From a virus, in UHGV virus genome UHGV-0380619: a DNA stretch of 10,543 bases; one strand, 5' to 3'. The stretch's first letter is position 1. Each line of letters opens with the position of its first letter. The position numbers were made by a program, and so were the translations under genes. The notes below the pieces were generated by a model. The model was given only the letters and a program-made list of their open reading frames with translations, was not told where the DNA came from and searched no databases. Below are positions 343 through 8,201 of the stretch, in pieces.

Positions 343-876
343 TTATTTGTCAATTCCCCAGCACGCCAGCGCGCTCTCCTGGTCACGCCGTGAGACCTGT
401 CCATAGCAGTTATTTGAACGAATACGGCAGTCTCTGCCACCGTCCTTAATCCACCAGCGAATCGCCTCACATGCTCCCCTGCGATCGCCAGCATTAATTC
501 GTCTGTAAAACGTCGACGGGAAACACTTACCGGGACCAATGTTGTACGGACAGAATGACGCGATCCCCGCTTTCTGGGGTTCGGTCAATGGCACTTTGAT
601 GTTTTTCTCCACCCATGCCAGCGCCTTATCACGCTCAATGGCGTTAACCCGGTCGCATTTTTCCTTCGACAACTTCATGCCCGGAACGACAGGTTTGCCA
701 TCCACCAGGATGGCACCGCGGCAGATGGTCCAGATACCCGCGCCATCACGGTATGCCGTGGTGTGGTTACCTTCCTTTTCATCCAGAAACTGGTCGAGAA
801 TGTCAGGCGCAGGCGCACCAGCGGCAATCAGCGCCAGAACGGCAGCCGACAGGCCGTATCTGATTTTTGCGTTCAT
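343..876 (-). CDS. R: SAR endolysin (T4-lysozyme-like muramidase, phage 21 R type)
   Basis: 177-aa ORF. N-terminal Gly/Ala-rich weakly hydrophobic signal-anchor-release segment (GLSAAVLALIAAGAPA). Catalytic triad spacing E-8aa-D-5aa-T (EGNHTTAYRD GAGIW T). Strong recalled similarity to P21 R / DLP12 RrrD. Confidence 0.9.
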   Translation of the reverse strand: MNAKIRYGLSAAVLALIAAGAPAPDILDQFLDEKEGNHTTAYRDGAGIWTICRGAILVDGKPVVPGMKLSKEKCDRVNAIERDKALAWVEKNIKVPLTEPQKAGIASFCPYNIGPGKCFPSTFYRRINAGDRRGACEAIRWWIKDGGRDCRIRSNNCYGQVSRRDQESALACWGIDK

Positions 877-1219: not shown

Positions 1220-1564
1220 TTACCATTTCGGCGGACTCTTCAGAGAACCCGTAATTATTCCCGGTAGTTTTCCTCTGTAGGTTATCAACACATCCTGCGC
1301 CTCTAAAATTACGGGGCGCTTTTCCGGCGACTGCTCATCCCCTTCACATAACCCGGCAGCAACATCCAGGAAGACCTGTCTGATGCTCCTTCTGGCTGCT
1401 GCCTCATAAAACTCCAGCGCGGCACCTTCAACACGGTCCAGCGAGATGTCCAGGTCAAAAATTTCACCGTCAAAGCGTTTTTTGTCCCGTAACGCTAAAG
1501 TTACCGTAACTTTATTCTCAAAATTGCGGATCCCTTTCACAATCAGTTCATAGTTTTGAGTCAT
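1220..1564 (-). CDS. DUF1327-family protein (YdfR-like) inserted between holin and endolysin
   Basis: 114-aa ORF. ATG at 1564 lies 4 nt after the holin stop and is preceded by GGGGAGAG. Translation MTQNYELIVKGIRNFENKVTVTLAL... resembles my recollection of YdfR, which sits between essQ and rrrQ in Qin. Family assignment is from memory. Confidence 0.6.
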   Translation of the reverse strand: MTQNYELIVKGIRNFENKVTVTLALRDKKRFDGEIFDLDISLDRVEGAALEFYEAAARRSIRQVFLDVAAGLCEGDEQSPEKRPVILEAQDVLITYRGKLPGIITGSLKSPPKW

Positions 1565-1568
1565 TGAA

Positions 1569-1784
1569 TTACTCTCCCCGTGCAGCCTTACGCTTGTCTT
1601 CTCTGATTTTGAAGTACAGATTTGTCAGATAAGTCAGGAAGCCCAGAACCAGACTCCCCAGTACACCAATCGCAGCCCACTGTGACGGACTGACCTGATC
1701 AAGCCACTGTAAAAACCAGTAGCCAGCACTGCCTGCGGAGGTGCCGTAGGCAATGCCCGTTGAAATTTTGTCCATGGATTTCAT
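1569..1784 (-). CDS. S: Class II pinholin (phage 21 S21 type, 71 aa) with dual-start motif
   Basis: Translation [71 protein letters not shown] is near-identical in pattern to S21/EssD as recalled. Dual start Met1-Lys-Ser-Met4. Strong SD GGAGGTGA upstream of ATG at 1784. Two transmembrane segments. Confidence 0.85.
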
Positions 1785-1921
1785 AGCCTCACCTCCGCAG
1801 CGAACGGATGGCGTAGTTATAAGGGGAGCGAAAAAGAAAGAATGCGCGATTGCGCAATATGGTAACGTCAGGGTATTATCCACTGGCTGAATAGATCACT
1901 TCACGTTTTTTGTTCCTTGCC

Positions 1922-1949
1922 GCCCGTATCCATATGCGGGCTTTTTTTT
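1922..1949 (+). terminator. Plus-strand intrinsic terminator (hairpin plus T8)
   Basis: GCCCGTAT..ATGCGGGC hairpin at 1922-1941 followed by eight T at 1942-1949 on the plus strand. Confidence 0.45.
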
Positions 1950-1955
1950 GCATGT

Positions 1956-1985
1956 AAAAAGGCCCCAACACATGTGCGTGGGGCC
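1956..1985 (-). terminator. Minus-strand intrinsic terminator upstream of the holin gene
   Basis: Hairpin GGCCCCA...TGGGGCC at 1961-1985. On the minus strand it is followed by UUUUU (plus-strand A run at 1956-1960). Confidence 0.5.
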
Positions 1986-2185
1986 TGAGAGTATACATGG
2001 TTTCAGTCAACTGCATGGTGCCGGGTGCCTCCCGGTGAATTCAGTACCAGCACCTGAATCCGCGATTATCCCATATACCTACTCGCTGATTGCCCATCCG
2101 CACAGGGGGATTCACCATGCCAGTTTCTTTTAACAAACTCCCCGCAAAACAGACAACTGTCAACCGTCTGAATTGTGAGACATTT

Positions 2186-2211
2186 AAAAAAAAGGCCCGC
2201 AAAAGCGAGCC
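2186..2211 (-). terminator. Minus-strand intrinsic terminator immediately 3' of the tRNA cluster
   Basis: On the minus strand: GGCUCGC-UUUU-GCGGGCC (7-bp stem with one G.U, 4-nt loop) followed by U8 (plus-strand A8 at 2186-2193). Confidence 0.45.
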
Positions 2212-2225
2212 GGGAAAAATAAGTC

Positions 2226-2302
2226 TGGCGCGTTGTACTGGATTCGAACCAGTGACCGATTGCTTAGAAGGCAATTGCTCTGTCCGGTTGAGCTAACAAC
2301 GC
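2226..2302 (-). tRNA. tRNA-Arg (anticodon UCU)
   Basis: Reverse complement folds as a cloverleaf: acceptor GCGTTGT/ACAACGC, anticodon stem ATTGC/GCAAT with loop CTTCTAA (anticodon TCT), T-arm ACTGG-TTCGAAT-CCAGT, 3' GCCA. Confidence 0.9.
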
Positions 2303-2315
2303 AGGGTACAGATAA

Positions 2316-2392
2316 TGGACCGCCATCGAGGACTCGAACCCCGCGCAACCAGCTTCGAAGGCTGGTGCTCTATCCTGATGAGCTAATGGCGG
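2316..2392 (-). tRNA. tRNA-Arg (anticodon UCG)
   Basis: Reverse complement: acceptor CCGCCAT/ATGGCGG, D-arm GCTC..GAGC, anticodon stem CCAGC/GCTGG with loop CTTCGAA (anticodon TCG), T-loop TTCGAGT, 3' TCCA. Confidence 0.85.
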
Positions 2393-2399
2393 TATGTGA

Positions 2400-2475
2400 T
2401 GGTGGCCCTTGCTGGATTTGAACCAGCGACCTGGCGATTATGAGTCGCTCGCTCTCACCACTGAGCTAAAGGGCC
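2400..2475 (-). tRNA. tRNA-Ile2 (anticodon CAU, lysidine type; alternatively tRNA-Met)
   Basis: Reverse complement GGCCCTTTAGCTCAGTGGTGAGAGCGAGCGACTCATAATCGCCAGGTCGCTGGTTCAAATCCAGCAAGGGCCACCA: anticodon loop CTCATAA, T-arm GCTGG-TTCAAAT-CCAGC. Closely resembles E. coli ileX as recalled. Confidence 0.85.
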
Positions 2476-2515
2476 GGGAGCCGCATAATAACGACGCGTA
2501 ATTAATTCTTCAATA

Positions 2516-2794
2516 TCATCCGTTCTGGCTGACTAAATCCTGTACTTCCCGAACCGTCTGCTCAAAACGTTCAGTCTCCAGCTCAACGCCAATTGCACGA
2601 CGCCCGAGCGCCAGTGCCGCTTTCACTGTCGAACCCGACCCCATGAAAAAATCTGCAATCAGGTCACCCGGACGACTGCTAGCGCTGATTATCTGCTGCA
2701 GCATTTCTGCCGGTTTTTCGCACGGATGTTTCCCGGGATAGAACTGCACCGGTTTATGCGTCCAGACATCGGTATACGGCACCTGCGCCGTCAC
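2516..2794 (-). pseudogene. Truncated N6/N4 DNA methyltransferase remnant (C-terminal portion only)
   Basis: Translation carries the C-terminal AdoMet-binding motif region (DLIADFFMGSGSTVKAALALGRRAIGVELE). No DPPY-containing N-terminal half; the reading frame closes at a stop at 2876-2878 and the first candidate start is GTG at 2794. Confidence 0.7.
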
Positions 2795-2852
2795 GCCAAA
2801 ATACCGCCGCAGTCGGCATTCACAACCACCAGCGCATTTAACGTTCAGCCAT

Positions 2853-2877
2853 AAAAAAACCCGCTCGCGGCGGGTTT
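2853..2877 (-). terminator. tR'-like intrinsic terminator downstream of Q
   Basis: On the minus strand: AAACCCGC-CGCGA-GCGGGUUU hairpin followed by U7 (plus-strand A7 at 2853-2859, hairpin 2860-2874). Confidence 0.55.
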
Positions 2878-2945
2878 AAGCTGTGTGGCGAAGTAACCAC
2901 TCTTAACATACTGACATACTTTTTGCGGACCGCACTAATCATTTT
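2878..2945 (-). promoter_or_regulatory. Candidate late promoter / Q-utilisation region (pR'-qut-like), position inferred
   Basis: Directly downstream of the Q stop. On the minus strand there are tandem -10-like hexamers TATGTC and TATGTT (plus-strand direct repeat ACATACT-G-ACATACT at 2906-2920), followed about 40 nt later by the terminator. No convincing -35 found. Confidence 0.25.
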
Positions 2946-3326
2946 TTACTTTTTTAGCAGCCAGTCGTCCATCTCCAGTCTTACCCCCAGCACAGACAAA
3001 CATCCGTCAATAAACCCTTCGGCTATCTGCATCTCAATTCGTATTGCTTTTTCGCTTTTCTTTCTCGTCCTGGCTATCTGTCTTTTTGATATTCGCAACA
3101 AATAATGAGCAATGAGAAGCGAATACTCCTCAGGTTTTTTCTGCTTCAGACGAGCAAGACAGTTTTCAATGATAAGTCCGTCATCATCGCAGCAGGCCGG
3201 ACGTGGTTTAGTGGCAGATGGTAAAAGTCCTTTGAATCCGGCAGCGATCGGAGAATAGTCCACCCCGGTGTTACCACTTGCAGCCCATGCCCCCCAGCGT
3301 TCAAGAACCATCTGAATATCACGCAT
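2946..3326 (-). CDS. Q: Late-gene antiterminator Q (phage 82/21 / QuuD-like family)
   Basis: ATG at 3326 (MRDIQMVLERWGAWAA...) preceded by GGAGAAAG; the track's upstream start at 3341 is TTG. Cys-rich motif ACCDDDGLIIENC. Position immediately upstream of the tR'-like terminator and late region. Confidence 0.8.
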   Translation of the reverse strand: MRDIQMVLERWGAWAASGNTGVDYSPIAAGFKGLLPSATKPRPACCDDDGLIIENCLARLKQKKPEEYSLLIAHYLLRISKRQIARTRKKSEKAIRIEMQIAEGFIDGCLSVLGVRLEMDDWLLKK

Positions 3327-3343
3327 CAACTTTCTCCACAAAA

Positions 3344-4339
3344 TCAGGCCAGCACGCCAATTGCCAGCGCACGATCGATAAAACGAAATATCAGCTCCAG
3401 CTGGGAGCCATACTTCTCTTCAAATGCCACGGTATCCGCATGCAGCTCGTCGTGATGCTTTCTGCACAAAGGCAACACAAAGAGGTCATGCGCTTTTGTA
3501 CCCATTCCCCCCTGACCGTGGCCTATCAGGTGGTGGGGATCATCAGCTGGCTTTCCACAACATGCACACGGCTGTGTCTTAACCCAGCGCGTGTACTTTT
3601 CATTAACCCAGCGGCGACGTTTTGGGCGTAACATAAAAGACTCCGGCGACTCCGGATCCACTTTCAGCGCCAGCACCTTTTTCGCTTTATCCTGGATAAT
3701 GCTGGTGGCAGGAACCGAAGGAACAAGGTCACTCTCCCGGGTGACAGACGGCACAACAGGCTTCGGTAATCTCAGTGCCTTACGGGCTGCACTTTCCGGT
3801 AAGGCATCCGCCAGGTCATTACGAATCAGCCACCAGCACAGTTCCGGCATTGTCACAACGTGACTGTCATCAAAACCGAGATCACGGCGCACAACAGATA
3901 ACACCCAGCGGGCACAGTTATCCGTTGCCATTGATTCCAGCCGTTCCGTGAACTGATCGCGCAACTGGTTATCGCAGTGCCAGCACAGACGGATTGCGCC
4001 CGGAGCGTGCCGCATTGTGGTCATGTTCTCGCTGTGCCAGTCGGAATGAGGCCACTGGCAGCCTTTTTCACGAAGTAACCAGCTTTCAAGACATTCCACG
4101 CCACCAGCACGACGGATCACTGCCTCATTGCGGAACACGGCCCGAACGGCAGGATCATCCGCCAGCGGTTGTGATGCCGCCGGAACGGCACCACTGGCGA
4201 AAGATGAATAACGCTCCGGCTCAGGCTCCAGCAGGACACGCCCCTGCATAAACAGGGGCATCAGCTCTGAACCTGGCCTGAACAATACGATCCCCATACG
4301 CGGGGCAATTTCAGGGGTCAGTAGTGCTCTCACAGTCAC
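3344..4339 (-). CDS. DUF968-family phage protein with HNH-like Cys/His motif (YdfU-like)
   Basis: 331-aa ORF. C-terminal CACCGKPADDPHHLIGHGQGGMGTKAHDLFVLPLCRKHHDELH motif. Sits immediately upstream of Q as ydfU does in Qin. Start uncertain: the first codon at 4339 is GTG; internal ATGs are possible. Confidence 0.7.
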   Translation of the reverse strand: MTVRALLTPEIAPRMGIVLFRPGSELMPLFMQGRVLLEPEPERYSSFASGAVPAASQPLADDPAVRAVFRNEAVIRRAGGVECLESWLLREKGCQWPHSDWHSENMTTMRHAPGAIRLCWHCDNQLRDQFTERLESMATDNCARWVLSVVRRDLGFDDSHVVTMPELCWWLIRNDLADALPESAARKALRLPKPVVPSVTRESDLVPSVPATSIIQDKAKKVLALKVDPESPESFMLRPKRRRWVNEKYTRWVKTQPCACCGKPADDPHHLIGHGQGGMGTKAHDLFVLPLCRKHHDELHADTVAFEEKYGSQLELIFRFIDRALAIGVLA

Positions 4340-5202: not shown

Positions 5203-5592
5203 TCAGGCGGCTGCACCCGCCGTTTTCTCGTACTTACTGATAGTGATCTCGACCTTCCCTTCCGGGATAACCGGTCCCCACTCCACCAGCATTCTTTTCA
5301 CCTGGCTGTCGTCTTCCCACACACCCGCGTGGGTCAGGGCGTCAAACAGCGCCTTGTTATAGTTGTCCAGATCGCGGATCCGGTTATCCGGAGGAAACAA
5401 CACGATCTCCACTGAAGCAGGTGCCGACGTTGGTTTCGGCAGACGACGTAACTGCTCAACTATTGCTGTGCACGCCGCACTCTGGAATTTTCGCCCCGCC
5501 GCGCTTATCAGGCTCTTACCAGCAAATGCCCCTTTGTTGGGGTGTCGCCAGTAGGTGTTCACGCTGGGTGGAAAAGGCAGAATCAGCTTCAT
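5203..5592 (-). CDS. rusA: RusA-family Holliday junction resolvase
   Basis: 129-aa ORF MKLILPFPPSVNTYWRH...RDLDNYNKALFDALTHAGVWEDDSQV, matching the RusA motif pattern. The start ATG overlaps the upstream gene's stop (ATGA). Confidence 0.88.
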   Translation of the reverse strand: MKLILPFPPSVNTYWRHPNKGAFAGKSLISAAGRKFQSAACTAIVEQLRRLPKPTSAPASVEIVLFPPDNRIRDLDNYNKALFDALTHAGVWEDDSQVKRMLVEWGPVIPEGKVEITISKYEKTAGAAA

Positions 5593-5915
5593 ACTTTCAG
5601 CCCCCTCTCATGTAACCAGTGGGCTGCACGCAGCCTGGCGTTTTCCTCACCAGCAAGCAGTGCGCGGATAATCCCGGCCACCTCGCTGTCGTCGTCCTTC
5701 ACCGCGGTATGAAGCGTGATGCCCCGGGCCACGCCACGCTTTATCGTGATGACGCCTTTTTTCTCCAGTGCGCGAAGATGCTCCACCGCTGCATTCACTG
5801 AACGGTATCCCAGCATGGTAGCCACCTCCTGATTGGTTGGCGGGAAGCCACGTTCTTTCTGGTAAGAAATCAGCATATCCAGCACCTGCTGCTGGCATTG
5901 AGTTAACGTCGTCAT
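5589..5915 (-). CDS. LexA N-terminal DNA-binding-domain-like protein lacking the S24 peptidase domain
   Basis: From ATG at 5915: MTTLTQCQQQVLDMLISYQKERGFPPTNQEVATMLGYRSVNAAVEHLRALEKKGVITIKRGVARGITL, which aligns by eye with the LexA N-terminus. No Ser/Lys protease domain. Start overlaps the upstream stop (TAATG); stop overlaps the rusA start. Confidence 0.75.
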   Translation of the reverse strand: MTTLTQCQQQVLDMLISYQKERGFPPTNQEVATMLGYRSVNAAVEHLRALEKKGVITIKRGVARGITLHTAVKDDDSEVAGIIRALLAGEENARLRAAHWLHERGLKV

Positions 5916-6403
5916 TAAGCCCCCACGTAATTCCCTGACAGATACCACTCTTCACCCGATACAGCGCGCTTGCTGCTTTTCCGTAAACACCGCTCACGAC
6001 GCGCAAGAAAATTGTTTCGCTCTTGCTGGGAGTGGCTTTCACGGAATGCCGCCATCCACACCGTTGCAGCACGACGGTATAAGCCCCTGGACTCCAGTTC
6101 TTCAGCCTGACGGGTCAGGCACAAAATCACCCAGGGGTCGTTAGTGCCGACATAGAAATTGCTCACAGGTATGGTTTCAAGAACAGGTTGCAGTTTCTCC
6201 TCCTGCGATATCTCAGCCTGGTGTGGGAAATGTCTGCGTGTTTTCCCTTCACAACGGTGAGCCACACGCCCACTCTGACGTAACTTGCTTGCTGACTGCA
6301 GTACGCGCTGCCGTGAGTAACCTGCAAAAGCATCCGCAATGTCTCCGGAAGTACAGCCCGGATGGGCTTCAATGAATTTCTGAACTTCATTCAAAAGACT
6401 CAT
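5915..6403 (-). CDS. PerC-family transcriptional regulator-like protein (YfdN-like) with an N-terminal HTH-like region
   Basis: C-terminal LTRQAEELESRGLYRRAATVWMAAFRESHSQQERNNFLARRERCLRKS resembles PerC/Pch proteins. ATG at 6403 preceded by GGGGGTG; the track start at 6409 is GTG. Confidence 0.6.
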   Translation of the reverse strand: MSLLNEVQKFIEAHPGCTSGDIADAFAGYSRQRVLQSASKLRQSGRVAHRCEGKTRRHFPHQAEISQEEKLQPVLETIPVSNFYVGTNDPWVILCLTRQAEELESRGLYRRAATVWMAAFRESHSQQERNNFLARRERCLRKSSKRAVSGEEWYLSGNYVGA

Positions 6404-6405
6404 GA

Positions 6406-7347
6406 TCACCCCCTGAATCCTTCCGGGATCTGGCTGTAGTCCACGTTGTCGTAACTGGCTTTGAAGTACGGGTCCTCACGTTTTTCTGTGTGCGTGCTGA
6501 CGGACGGCGATAAGCGCAGGGAAAGCTCATCCCATTTTTCCCGCAACTTCGACGGGCTGAGCACGTTACGGCACCAGAACGGATCACGGCTGACGCGGCT
6601 GTACATCTCGCAGATTTGTTTGTGAGTACGACCATCCTGCACACACATCAGGCGAATTTCGTTTGCCCATGCTGTCCAGTTCGGTTCTTTGGGACGAACC
6701 ACCTCGCCGTCACATTCGGCGGCCTGCTCGTACAGGGCGATGATTTTTTTCCAGAGCCACTGTGCGCAGGTCAAATCATCCTGCGTTCCCCACTGGCGCT
6801 TTTTAGGGCTGAATACAACCGCATCAGGATGGCGAGTTAAAAAATCCTGTTCAGCCGTCTGCGTGTCCGGTTGCAAAGCGTCCGGACGAGAAGGTTTTTT
6901 ATCTGACGGATCATGTTTTGATTTTACTGACGGATCCCCGCCAGATTCTGACGGGTGAAAACACGCTTTTTTGCCAGATTTCGACGCATCAAATTTTGAC
7001 GGGTCAGATTTTGATGCGTCAGATTTTGACGGGTCAGAATCTGACAGTTGAGAAAATGCCGCAGCCTGAAGCTTCGCAACGTTAAGCTGATAAACATTCG
7101 ACGCATTGCGGTTACCCTGGCGACGCGCCTTACGCGTTAACCAGCCTTCTGCTTCCAGCCGTGCGATAGCCGTTCTGACGGTACTCATCCCCGCGCCAAT
7201 CTGGCGGGCAATGGTTTCAATTGATGGCCAGCACACACCCTCGTCATTACTGAAATCAGCCAGACGGGCCATAATTGCCACACTGGATAATTTCATGCCT
7301 GACGCTGCGCAACCATCCCATACATAGCCGGTTAATTTGGTGCTCAC
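6406..7347 (-). CDS. Replication initiator (lambda O-like; HTH replisome-organiser N-domain with low-complexity linker)
   Basis: GTG start at 7347 preceded by a strong SD AAGGAGGTG with an in-frame TAA immediately upstream. N-terminal HTH region (LTGYVWDGCAASGMKLSSVAIMARLADFSNDEGVCWPSIETIARQ). Central pentapeptide repeats (SDPSK/SDASK) encoded by iterons. Confidence 0.8.
   Translation of the reverse strand: MSTKLTGYVWDGCAASGMKLSSVAIMARLADFSNDEGVCWPSIETIARQIGAGMSTVRTAIARLEAEGWLTRKARRQGNRNASNVYQLNVAKLQAAAFSQLSDSDPSKSDASKSDPSKFDASKSGKKACFHPSESGGDPSVKSKHDPSDKKPSRPDALQPDTQTAEQDFLTRHPDAVVFSPKKRQWGTQDDLTCAQWLWKKIIALYEQAAECDGEVVRPKEPNWTAWANEIRLMCVQDGRTHKQICEMYSRVSRDPFWCRNVLSPSKLREKWDELSLRLSPSVSTHTEKREDPYFKASYDNVDYSQIPEGFRG
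6901..7048. repeat. Origin-like iteron array inside the O-like gene (about 8 copies, consensus AGATTTTGACGGGTC, 15-bp period in the core)
   Basis: Repeated TCTGACGG(G/A)TC-type units at about 6903, 6926, 6947, 6980, 6996, 7011, 7026 and 7041. Each unit contains a short inverted repeat (TCTGAC..GTCAGA). An AT-richer stretch follows at 6891-6930. Confidence 0.7.
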
Positions 7348-8201
7348 TTACGCACCTCCTTATGCTTTTCGTTCAGTTCCGAGTCCACCAGCCCGGCAAC
7401 GAATACACCATCGTTGATGTAGTCGTAGAGCGATGAAGCCAGCGGAGACTGAACTGAAACCAGCATCGGATAAAGTTGTTCTAACCAAACGCGGTGAATT
7501 TCAGCCATGTAGAGGTAAACAACGTGGGCATTGTGCGCGACACATGAAGTATCAACCTTTCCGATCAGCGCCTGTTCCATCTGGTTAAAGGCATTGATGT
7601 ATGCCTCTTTGAACTGGGCAGCACGTTTACCCGTGAAACCCATAGCAAGAAACGCAAAGCCATCGCGGGTTATTTGATAGCAAGGTAGTTTGCGAGTACC
7701 GCCGTTGGGCTGGCGTACCAAAATTGATGTCTCCGCAAAATTGCGGGCACAAAACTCTGGAGAACAATCCAAAATGCGAATCTTTTTCAGAACATCGTCA
7801 TGACGTTTAGAGAAGAAGTCAGCAACAGCCAAAGAAGATGTAACAGCCTGACCATCAACGATGGCAATTTCAGGTTGAGAGAGGGTTGGGAGAGTAGTCA
7901 TAGTGACAGCCCCGGTAGTCAGTTTTTTAGAAAACTCACCACATGGGACGCCAATCACAGAGGTGGTGAGACGTACAGGGTTGGCGTTACCGGAGACTAC
8001 CGAACCCGGCCCGACCGAAGTCGGCCCTGTACGCCCCACCATAATTTGGGCGTAGCAATGCTCATGACACGAAAAAACCGCATGAGCGCGGTTATGCTCA
8101 GTAATCAATTTCAGGACGCCAATCCCGGCAACGGATTTTGCCGCTGCCAGAACAATATAACGCCCAGAATTATCAGAATCAATCATTACTGGTTTGCTCA
8201 T
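7344..8201 (-). CDS. Rha-family phage regulatory protein with an unassigned ~100-aa N-terminal extension
   Basis: Rha-like core from about residue 101 (MTTLPTLSQPEIAIVDGQAVTSSLAVADFFSKRHDDVLKKIRILD...). ATG at 8201 preceded by AAGGGA; alternative internal start ATG at 7901. The N-terminal 100 aa have coding-like codon usage. Stop overlaps the O-like GTG start. Confidence 0.65.
   Translation of the reverse strand: MSKPVMIDSDNSGRYIVLAAAKSVAGIGVLKLITEHNRAHAVFSCHEHCYAQIMVGRTGPTSVGPGSVVSGNANPVRLTTSVIGVPCGEFSKKLTTGAVTMTTLPTLSQPEIAIVDGQAVTSSLAVADFFSKRHDDVLKKIRILDCSPEFCARNFAETSILVRQPNGGTRKLPCYQITRDGFAFLAMGFTGKRAAQFKEAYINAFNQMEQALIGKVDTSCVAHNAHVVYLYMAEIHRVWLEQLYPMLVSVQSPLASSLYDYINDGVFVAGLVDSELNEKHKEVRK

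Follow-up and report, generated by a model that had tools for sequence, protein, structure and literature searches.

In pathogenic E. coli, convergent pairs of small RNA (sRNA) genes have been described at a ‘moron’ site downstream of the antiterminator gene Q (Tree et al. 2014, Mol Cell; PMC4104026). Such pairs are found at this site in Sp3, Sp4, Sp5, Sp9, Sp10, Sp11, Sp15 and Sp17; in the Stx2 phage Sp5, the pair consists of EcOnc27/STnc100 and AsxR and is located just after stx2B (PMC4104026). The Sp4 pair is formed by EcOnc05 and EcOnc08. Both EcOnc05 and EcOnc27 have been shown to be Hfq-associated by CRAC and have been seen by northern blot, the former at a size of ~222 nt and the latter at two sizes, 235 and 247 nt. 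In EDL933, 11 out of 11 STnc100 copies are transcribed according to RNA-seq, and one of these has been confirmed by northern blot. No member of the STnc100 family has an established function.

The window analysed here is a stretch of 10,543 nucleotides from the virus genome UHGV-0380619. Its interval 1785-2475 very probably corresponds to the moron region found between Q/PR' and the lysis genes in Shiga-toxin-type lambdoid prophages, here in a minimal state that carries no cargo. Nothing in the window goes beyond published knowledge, as the tRNA trio, the moron site and the convergent sRNA pairs have all been described already. The interval appears to hold three small transcription units: a tRNA operon, an STnc100-family RNA and an RNA of ~64 nt on the opposite strand (Table 1). 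All of its genes lie on the minus strand, with the exception of the convergent small RNA on the plus strand. The likely start of Q is the ATG at 3326, whilst position 1785, from which the sequence-only reading had counted the interval, is the base just ahead of the holin ATG. A lysozyme was also identified by Pfam in the lysis cassette, and the tRNAs are situated between Q and that cassette. As that reading had recognised, the tRNA set and its placement between Q and S resemble those of Stx phages; in VT2-Sakai, stx2AB is found between the same tRNAs and S. The window differs from the Stx phages in having no stxA/stxB operon after the tRNAs, and no tblastn match to Stx2A or Stx2B was obtained anywhere in it. 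Terminator-like hairpins are enriched in 1500-3400, where the terminator scan found 6 against an expectation of 2.2 +/- 1.5.

Table 1. Features of the interval between Q and the holin gene and of its two boundaries (window coordinates).
Feature	Position	Strand	Basis and remarks
Antiterminator Q	2946..3341	-	Upstream slot boundary; PF06530, E 1.6e-52; PhiR49_2 annotation
tR'-like terminator	2877-2857	-	After Q; terminator scan
Sigma-70-like promoter of tRNA operon	2485..2513	-	TTGAAG, 17 nt, TATTAT; promoter scan
tRNA, anticodon CAU (CAT), predicted Ile2 (lysidine) type, ileZ homologue	2400..2475	-	ARAGORN; Rfam 72.5 bits
tRNA-Arg (UCG), argN homologue	2316..2392	-	ARAGORN; Rfam 56.2 bits
tRNA-Arg (UCU), argO homologue	2226..2302	-	ARAGORN; Rfam 70.1 bits
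Intrinsic terminator of tRNA operon	2186..2211	-	GGCTCGC-TTTT-GCGGGCC then T8; terminator scan
STnc100-family sRNA gene	1950..2174	-	Rfam RF02076; homologue of EcOnc05 (Sp4) and EcOnc27 (Sp5); PasD relative
EcOnc08-type small RNA, ~64 nt predicted	~1886..1949	+	Terminator scan, homology
Promoter of convergent sRNA	1850..1879	+	-35 TTGCGC (1850-1855), 18-nt spacer, -10 TATTAT (1874-1879); read from sequence
Holin leader and mosaic joint	1785..1849	-	sRNA module fused to holin module at ~1820-1835
Class II (P21-type) holin S	1569..1784	-	Downstream slot boundary; PF04971, E 1.4e-35

The three tRNA genes proposed from the sequence alone were recovered both by ARAGORN and by the Rfam tRNA model (threshold 29 bits), and together span 2226-2475 on the minus strand. 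Judged by sequence, the trio is the known ileZ-argN-argO set of Shiga-toxin-type prophages. It has the order, anticodons, site downstream of Q and promoter layout of the clusters in Sakai Sp4, Sp5, VT2-Sakai and 933W. The CAU tRNA is identical to tRNA-Ile of VT2-Sakai (76/76) and matches Sakai ileZ1 at 75/76 positions; the corresponding identities are 73/77 (VT2-Sakai) and 70/77 (Sakai argN1) for the UCG tRNA, and 75/77 (VT2-Sakai) and 76/77 (Sakai argO1) for the UCU tRNA. ARAGORN labels the CAT tRNA ‘Met’, and PGAP names its homologues tRNA-Ile. The CAU tRNA contains C4-G69 and C5-G68, which we take to be TilS identity elements, and it is predicted to be of the Ile2 type, read as Ile via lysidine at C34.

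The -10 element of the tRNA promoter ends 9 nt ahead of the first tRNA. A TTGnnn-17-TATTAT arrangement is also present upstream of ileZ in Sakai Sp4, VT2-Sakai, O157 strain 7636 and EPEC PP6, with differing flanks, and the layout is kept across five different upstream contexts. The intrinsic terminator directly follows argO, as it does in Sp4, and is conserved there and in O157 strain 7636; in VT2-Sakai stx2AB is found in its place. Use of the cognate rare codons in the phage genes, noticed earlier, is supported by counts in the window ORFs, where ATA, AGA, AGG and CGA occur at 9.1, 10.3, 5.3 and 4.6 per 1000 codons, respectively; averages in E. coli K-12 are around 4, 2, 1 and 3.5. The operon, with its own promoter and terminator, would supply tRNAs for AUA, CGA/CGG and AGA/AGG, codons that seem to be over-used in prophage genes.

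The slot between the last tRNA and the holin (1785-2225) had been described as empty and as holding only terminators. This proved incorrect, as it contains a full-length STnc100 match and a convergent small-RNA gene, and three of the supposed terminators end the tRNA operon, the STnc100-family sRNA and the convergent EcOnc08-type sRNA, respectively. The match to RF02076 (2149-1950, minus strand) scores 133.1 bits against a threshold of 47 (E 8e-30) and covers model positions 1-206 of 206. The window shares with this family, which has PasD1 and PasD2 of EPEC as relatives, the core CACCGGGAGGCACCCGGCACCAUGCA and the 5' hairpin GCAUGGUGAAUCCCCC...GGGG, whilst its central region is divergent and shorter. 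A terminator hairpin and U-run occupy 1985-1956. The gene aligns with EcOnc05 of Sp4 and EcOnc27 of Sp5, the Sp4 copy scoring 138 bits and the VT2-Sakai/Sp5 copy 208 bits. In VT2-Sakai, STnc100 lies 75 nt after stx2B, and AsxR (88 bits) is convergent on it.

The closest homologues of the locus include that of Sp4, along whose EcOnc05-EcOnc08 pair the window can be aligned throughout; the Table S2 coordinates of EcOnc05, EcOnc08 and EcOnc21 (PMC4104026) fall on the Sp4 sequence that aligns with it. Position, orientation, back-to-back terminators and a hairpin at the -35 element of the reverse gene are common to the window and the pairs of Sp5 and Sp4. In contrast to Sp4, the window pair is joined straight to the holin, with no esterase between, its STnc100 copy being ~84% identical over the region and its reverse RNA having a shorter GU tract and a different terminator stem. 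By analogy with these homologues, the window copy is predicted to be an expressed, Hfq-associated RNA. It would be ~200-220 nt in length and end at its own terminator, in keeping with relatives that are Hfq-bound and expressed in lysogens.

The terminator of the plus-strand gene (1922-1949) abuts the STnc100 end at 1950, so that the gene is convergent on that of the STnc100-type sRNA. An RNA of ~64 nt would be transcribed towards the STnc100 gene from the TTGCGC-18-TATTAT promoter, with the two terminators standing back to back. The -35 element falls within a hairpin (1843-1856). Downstream are an invariant CUUCACGU, a seed CCUUGCC (1915-1921), a terminator hairpin (1922-1941) and a U8 tail (1942-1949). 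The predicted RNA has a folding energy of -18.5 kcal/mol (z = -4.3) and is homologous both to the EcOnc08 Hfq-CRAC peak of Sakai Sp4 and to the EPEC RIL-seq RNA E2348C_1409.E2348C_1408.IGR, which is named as a homologue of EcOnc08/21/42 in table S6 of the EPEC RIL-seq study. Across 20 distinct homologues, the TATTAT -10, CTTCACGT and TTCCTTGC are invariant, the full seed CCTTGCC is found in 20/20, and TTGCGC is nearly invariant (TTGCAA in 2 variants). With 10 EcOnc08-type variants as input, the one consensus structure returned by RNAalifold was the terminator hairpin, with changes on both sides at 2 of 8 pairs; these covariation counts are an underestimate because the shorter stem of the window is partly misaligned.

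The promoter, the CUUCACGU block, the CCUUGCC seed and the terminator layout are those of EcOnc08/21/42 and the EPEC RNA, as is the neighbourhood, with tRNAs upstream and, in EPEC PP6, also holin, YdfR and lysozyme downstream. The window variant differs from the common form in that 5 nt of the GU-rich tract are missing and the terminator stem is different. The reported sizes of these RNAs are in the range of 182-271 nt: against the 64 nt predicted from the TATTAT -10 stand ~271 nt by northern blot for EcOnc08/21 in Sakai and an estimate of 182 nt in EPEC, and therefore a longer transcript starting further upstream may be the main species.

The relationship to AsxR, AgvB and EcOnc03 is more limited. 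These RNAs resemble the plus-strand RNA in locus, strand, size class, TTGCGC -35 and the terminator form GCCCG...CGGGC, and AsxR of VT2-Sakai has TTGCGC-18-TAAAAT at the same place; the -10 of the window, however, is TATTAT rather than TAAAAT. The ~42-nt 3' region that defines these anti-sRNAs (GUAUCUCAUGC..UUGCCCGAACCCAYUCGGGC) is absent from the window sequence. The seed is adjacent to the terminator in the EcOnc08 type, in contrast to the variable 5' end used by AsxR, AgvB and EcOnc03, and its RIL-seq partners are mRNAs and not sRNAs as for the latter. The plus-strand RNA matches no Rfam family, and a sensitive search of 451 nt with the AsxR and AgvB models gave no match to it at E <= 10; membership of the AsxR/AgvB family was therefore rejected.

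Homology with EcOnc08 of EHEC and the intergenic sRNA of EPEC PP6 points to trans action with Hfq as the most likely role of the ~64-nt RNA. Pairing would involve the CCUUGCC seed immediately 5' of the terminator and sites of the GGCAAGG type in host and virulence mRNAs; the EPEC RIL-seq target motif GGCAAGG/GGCAGGG is complementary to this seed. In EPEC, chimeras of the EcOnc08-type RNA involve cfa, dppA, tir and emrA. When the window and EPEC RNAs were paired with the EPEC cfa and dppA leaders using RNA.duplexfold, 20-105 of 300 mononucleotide shuffles were as good and the structures were implausible; a 9-bp match of UUCCUUGCCG with CGGCAAGGG in the cfa leader was found by eye only. dppA is also a gene that is de-repressed by AgvB.

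The EcOnc08 type has a promoter region in common with AsxR and AgvB, an unrelated body and a terminator-proximal seed, and its gene in the window lies ~100 nt upstream of the holin start and is fully complementary to the Q-dependent late transcript. It is a speculative and rather doubtful suggestion that EcOnc08-type RNAs make up a putative third, unnamed class at the ‘anti-sRNA’ locus, that the locus is an exchangeable regulatory-RNA cassette that retargets host mRNAs, and that the RNA might also serve as a cis antisense or transcription-collision brake on leaky expression of the lysis genes.

The proposal that the interval is a hotspot for cargo is well founded in so far as the flanks vary between relatives, where the interval was found to be variable in both length and content. 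The idea is correct but not new, because the moron site with its convergent sRNAs has been published (Tree et al. 2014; PMC4104026). Insertion into a blank spacer is not what is observed, however, as the cargo occurs on one flank or the other of the RNA pair and, in some cases, between the two genes. Across ~120 related loci, in a survey anchored on the STnc100 core whose counts cover core-bearing loci only, the cargo flanking the pair comprises stx2AB, a TerB-like gene, IS elements and a sialate esterase. In 32 loci, 186-189 nt separate the last tRNA from the core, as in the window (188 nt from argO); in other loci the separation is 808, about 880-955, 1528-1553 or 2916 nt, and these longer intervals carry a 118-aa ORF, a 167-171-aa ORF (TerB-like, as judged by eye), stx2AB or an IS element. 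Between the core and the holin, the spacing varies from ~240 to ~4070 nt. Phage records give a rough indication of frequency, with 289 matching the tRNA trio and 180 the slot.

The view that the slot is a functionally blank spacer, a vacant landing pad with terminators only, is very improbable. It would account for the several terminator-like hairpins, for the lack of any ORF with a Pfam match and for the cargo that relatives carry in the region. However, the STnc100 match takes up ~200 of the 441 nt and has nearly three times the gathering score, a further ~100 nt run from a promoter to a terminator as one unit, with conservation across 20 distinct variants and homology to Hfq-bound RNAs, and the cargo of relatives flanks this RNA module without replacing it. 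That the slot instead encodes a small protein, for example the 46-aa ORF at 1876-2016 on the minus strand, is barely credible, even though this ORF is annotated as a ‘hypothetical protein’ in PhiR49_2, RefSeq lists hypothetical proteins under homologous sequence, and ribosome coverage reaches 3.2 on some EDL933 STnc100 copies. The ORF reads straight through the two back-to-back terminators, its alignments with Sp4 and O157 strain 7636 contain gaps of 4, 5 and other lengths that are not multiples of 3, and in PGAP annotation its counterparts are marked as incomplete pseudogenes. None of the slot ORFs (46, 61 and 68 aa) is matched by Pfam, and their frames are broken by indels in homologues; they were rejected as coding, and on this point the sequence-only reading, which saw no convincing ORF in the slot, was right. 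It is quite unlikely that deletion of cargo such as stx or the esterase left the two RNA genes behind as decaying, unexpressed remnants. The arrangement of the window is indeed rare (3 of ~124 surveyed loci), there is a mosaic joint immediately upstream of the holin, and both the 5-nt deletion in the plus-strand RNA and an STnc100 score below that of the Sp5 copy would suit decay; on the other hand, promoter hexamers, seed and both terminators are intact, the Rfam model is matched in full with no truncation, and the Hfq-bound Sp4 copy scores about the same. In blastn comparisons, many loci have a match to window 1948-1837 in their sRNA module, and ~1820-1701 is 95-96% identical to the holin region of loci with ~1.4 kb between the holin and the STnc100 core. 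The joint at ~1820-1835 is the only feature found that bears on whether the minimal state is ancestral or arose by deletion, and it is compatible with either origin.

Within the reading of the interval as a minimal moron region with two sRNA genes, the 5' end of the STnc100-type RNA is the part least firmly placed, with candidate positions from about 2174 to 2128. Conservation with the Sp5 copy starts at TCACAATTCAG (window ~2176), and upstream of this block the two sequences are wholly different. No convincing sigma-70 promoter was found for this RNA: for a conserved TTGACA (2163-2158), no acceptable -10 is present at a spacing of 16-19 nt, the northern sizes of homologues place the 5' end upstream of it, and no good -35/-10 pair stands at the right distance from any plausible 5' end. 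The RNA could therefore be a processing product, a stable 3' fragment of read-through from the tRNA operon or of the Q-antiterminated late transcript, rather than the product of an independent gene. The two sizes of EcOnc27 would also be in keeping with this possibility, which deserves consideration but is unlikely, since a strong intrinsic terminator separates argO from the STnc100-type RNA in both the window and Sp4, the STnc100 family is transcribed in uninduced cultures, and in the PasD/EcOnc13 relatives TTGACT stands 17 nt upstream of TTAAAA, immediately before a 5' end consistent with their 187-nt northern band.

The locus illustrates a blind spot in annotation, as phage and RefSeq records show a ‘hypothetical protein’ or a blank where two regulatory RNA genes are found. 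The same RNA pair is located directly after stx2B in Stx2 phages, and an association between HUS outcome and variants of the STnc100/EcOnc27 region has been reported (PMC12711010). E. coli MS8345 is an example of a lysogen with a 100% match. Of 5426 complete E. coli genomes, 2792 contain matches to sequence from the slot, mostly to the 33-nt STnc100 core, at up to 11 places per genome.

The interval 1785-2475 runs exactly from the first of three tRNA genes to the base preceding the holin ATG, as judged from the positions of the Pfam-identified genes, and the minus strand carries all genes in this part of the window, a predicted plus-strand RNA aside. A sequence-only reading had described the part between the last tRNA and the holin gene S (1785-2225, here the slot) as an empty cargo site holding only terminators. 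Instead, the slot contains a full-length STnc100-family RNA, matched over model positions 1-206 of 206, and a plus-strand RNA unit that directly adjoins it and converges on it from the opposite strand; both are predicted genes in this prophage. The hairpins themselves are present, but each of three transcription units (the tRNA operon, STnc100 and the convergent RNA) finishes at one of them. E. coli MS8345 carries a slot that is 100% identical, and the closest deposited phage, Escherichia phage PhiR49_2 from ECOR13, one that is 99.8% identical.

As had been supposed, the slot holds no convincing ORF, those of 46, 61 and 68 aa giving zero Pfam matches. The 46-aa ORF, annotated in PhiR49_2, was rejected as a gene because it reads across both terminators and indels break its frame in the closest homologues. 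‘Hypothetical protein’ CDSs, often flagged incomplete, overlie the STnc100 and convergent sRNA sequences in 1785-2225 and in homologous RefSeq and phage regions; these calls are probably spurious, made over conserved DNA that does not code for protein.

Features of the tRNA, small RNA and lysis region
Feature	Position	Strand	Basis or detail
Q antiterminator	2946-3341	-	Pfam PF06530, E 1.6e-52
tR'-like terminator, downstream of Q	2877-2857	-	terminator-type hairpin
N6/N4 DNA methylase, C-terminal remnant	2516-2794	-	Pfam match limited to positions 137-220 of the 221 in the profile
tRNA operon promoter, sigma-70-like	2513-2485	-	TTGAAG-17-TATTAT; ends 9 nt before first tRNA
tRNA, anticodon CAT	2400-2475	-	ARAGORN; Rfam tRNA 72.5 bits
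tRNA Arg-TCG	2316-2392	-	ARAGORN; Rfam tRNA 56.2 bits
tRNA Arg-TCT	2226-2302	-	ARAGORN; Rfam tRNA 70.1 bits
Strong intrinsic terminator after argO	2211-2186	-	hairpin
STnc100, RF02076, full length	2149-1950	-	Rfam 133.1 bits (gathering score 47), E 8e-30
STnc100 terminator	1985-1956	-	hairpin and U-run
Plus-strand RNA, -35 TTGCGC	1850-1855	+	sequence
Plus-strand RNA, -10 TATTAT	1874-1879	+	sequence; 18-nt spacer after -35
Plus-strand RNA, predicted start	near 1886	+	promoter position
CCUUGCC seed	1915-1921	+	window RNA sequence
Plus-strand RNA, terminator hairpin	1922-1941	+	then T8 run to 1949
Holin S, P21-type	1569-1784	-	Pfam PF04971
DUF1327/YdfR protein	1220-1564	-	Pfam
Phage lysozyme	343-876	-	Pfam

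The three tRNAs proposed earlier are real: ARAGORN calls all of them, and their Rfam scores lie well above the threshold of 29 bits. The CAT tRNA is labelled ‘Met’ by ARAGORN, yet it is identical at 76/76 positions to a VT2-Sakai (Sp5) tRNA annotated tRNA-Ile and at 75/76 to Sakai ileZ1, and PGAP likewise names its homologues tRNA-Ile. Arg-TCG and Arg-TCT match their VT2-Sakai counterparts at 73/77 and 75/77. With its own promoter and terminator, the trio looks like a self-contained operon that would have no need of Q. A TTGnnn-17-TATTAT layout also precedes ileZ in four further prophages, the rest of whose upstream sequence differs. The -35 element touches the 3' end of the methylase remnant, of which the C-terminal third alone is left; this remnant sequence also lies upstream of ileZ in VT2-Sakai. 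The use of rare codons in the phage ORFs was borne out, with ATA, AGA, AGG and CGA at 9.1, 10.3, 5.3 and 4.6 per 1000 codons in the window ORFs; the E. coli K-12 averages are ~4, ~2, ~1 and ~3.5, respectively.

For the STnc100-type RNA, the Rfam model begins at 2149, but the northern sizes of homologues (222 nt in Sp4, 235/247 nt in Sp5) and the start of the conserved stretch at TCACAATTCAG suggest a 5' end at ~2174. No convincing promoter was found near this position. In the PasD1/EcOnc13 relatives of EPEC PP4 (L126) and Sakai Sp3 (L125), TTGACT lies 17 nt before TTAAAA, immediately upstream of a 5' end matching a 187-nt northern band, whereas in STnc100 copies the two motifs are 24 nt apart; thus, the two subfamilies may have different promoters. 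The alignment made here agrees with a 2026 preprint that connects STnc100 with the EPEC sRNAs PasD1 and PasD2. Among CsrA-bound chimera partners in EPEC, PasD2 is the most abundant according to a 2026 preprint. In EDL933, 11/11 STnc100 copies are transcribed in ordinary culture. In one surveyed locus (L044, 1486-1786), two STnc100 cores are separated by 275 nt, pointing to tandem copies.

The predicted 64-nt plus-strand RNA has a folding energy of -18.5 kcal/mol, with z = -4.3 relative to shuffled sequences. It shares its locus, orientation and -35 (TTGCGC in the GCGCAnnnGCGC hairpin) with the AsxR/AgvB/EcOnc03 ‘anti-sRNA’ family, but membership was rejected, as a sensitive Rfam search gave no match and the RNA lacks the 42-nt 3' region by which the family is defined. 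Its relatives are instead sequences of the type of EcOnc08, an Hfq-bound EHEC RNA. Among 20 distinct sequences of this type, TATTAT, CTTCACGT and TTCCTTGC are invariant, the full seed CCTTGCC is present in 20/20, and the -35 is TTGCGC except in two variants with TTGCAA. The GU tract and terminator stem vary, the window variant differing in a GU tract 5 nt shorter and a stem of its own. The RNAalifold consensus of 10 variants is the terminator hairpin, with both-sides changes at 2/8 pairs. The predicted 64 nt compares with 182-271 nt reported for homologues.

This architecture, a tRNA trio with a convergent sRNA pair at the moron site, is already published, and what the window shows belongs to kinds of feature that are known. 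Convergent sRNA genes lie at the moron site downstream of PR' in Sp3, 4, 5, 9, 10, 11, 15 and 17, and in Sp5 stx2B is followed by EcOnc27 and EcOnc02/AsxR (Tree et al. 2014, PMC4104026). In VT2-Sakai, STnc100 (208 bits) starts 75 nt past stx2B and AsxR (88 bits) converges on it. In Sp4, EcOnc05 is on the plus strand (northern ~222 nt) and EcOnc08 and EcOnc21 are on the minus strand (~271 nt; Tree et al. 2014 Table S2, PMC4104026). With these coordinates mapped onto the Sp4 sequence, the order is ileZ1-argN1-argO1, the same terminator as in the window, the STnc100-type RNA (EcOnc05) and EcOnc08, whose Hfq-CRAC peak reaches from the terminator as far as the base that immediately follows TATTAT. 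By sequence, Sp4 EcOnc08 is the homologue of the plus-strand RNA.

An EPEC RIL-seq study lists E2348C_1409.E2348C_1408.IGR (PP6, minus strand, 1444797-1444978) as an EcOnc08/21/42 homologue; among its chimera partners are the cfa leader (767), the dppA leader (197), tir and emrA, and the partners share the motif GGCAAGG/GGCAGGG, complementary to CCUUGCC in the RNA (PMC8550237). Duplex-energy prediction against the cfa and dppA leaders gave nothing informative. The PP6 locus reads Q, two tRNAs, an IS element, the EcOnc08-type RNA, esterase, holin, YdfR and lysozyme, the last three making the same lysis cassette as in the window.

The proposal of a cargo hotspot stood, although the site was already described and is organised around the sRNA pair, with cargo on both sides of it. 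In a survey of loci anchored on the STnc100 core, so that loci without the RNA pair fall outside the counts, the tRNA-core distance ranges from 186 to 2916 nt and the core-holin distance from 239 to ~4070 nt. The last tRNA lies 186-189 nt from the core in 32 loci, as in the window. In 16 loci the distance is 808-810 nt and the interval carries a 118-aa ORF together with a small membrane ORF; intervals of ~880-955 nt carry an ORF of 167-171 aa that looks TerB-like by eye, those of 1528-1553 nt contain stx2AB or other genes, and one of 2916 nt has an IS element. A core-holin distance of 239-255 nt is confined, among surveyed loci, to the window itself, PhiR49_2 and a single locus from IMG/VR; in the remainder it is 566 to ~4070 nt, usually including a sialate-esterase gene. 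The mosaic joint between the sRNA and holin modules falls at ~1820-1835. Of ~120 IMG/VR loci containing the core, 38 carry an EcOnc08-type RNA directly after it, 11 an AgvB-like one, 4 an AsxR-like one and ~2 an EcOnc03-like one, and 66 have something else there. At least 7 of these 66 carry the EcOnc08 type ~490 nt further along. Such a displacement of ~490 nt is seen in L014, L018, L024, L078 and L121 (about +567 to +684 from the core), so that the space separating the two convergent RNAs is a third variable point. As a rough guide to absence of the RNA pair, 289 phage records match the tRNA trio and 180 the slot.

Elsewhere in the window, a ~265-nt segment (~900-1215) between the YdfR-like and lysozyme genes is missing from the otherwise near-identical PhiR49_2; for the 41-aa ORF that it includes (982-1107, +), Pfam gives no match. 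Upstream of RusA, within the nin-like region, adjacent ORFs carry a PerC transcriptional-activator domain (5915-6409, -) and a LexA DNA-binding domain (5589-5948, -). An ORF whose product has Ash and Rha antirepressor domains (7344-8201, -) contains, towards its 5' end at 7959-8160 (-), Rfam matches to C4 antisense RNA (82 bits), isrK (69 bits) and, at 44 bits and slightly below threshold, the c4 a1/b1 target element. The annotated start of this ORF is probably too far upstream, and the arrangement looks like a module for antirepressor control of the P1 immI/Gifsy-1 IsrK kind, carried by a lambdoid prophage.
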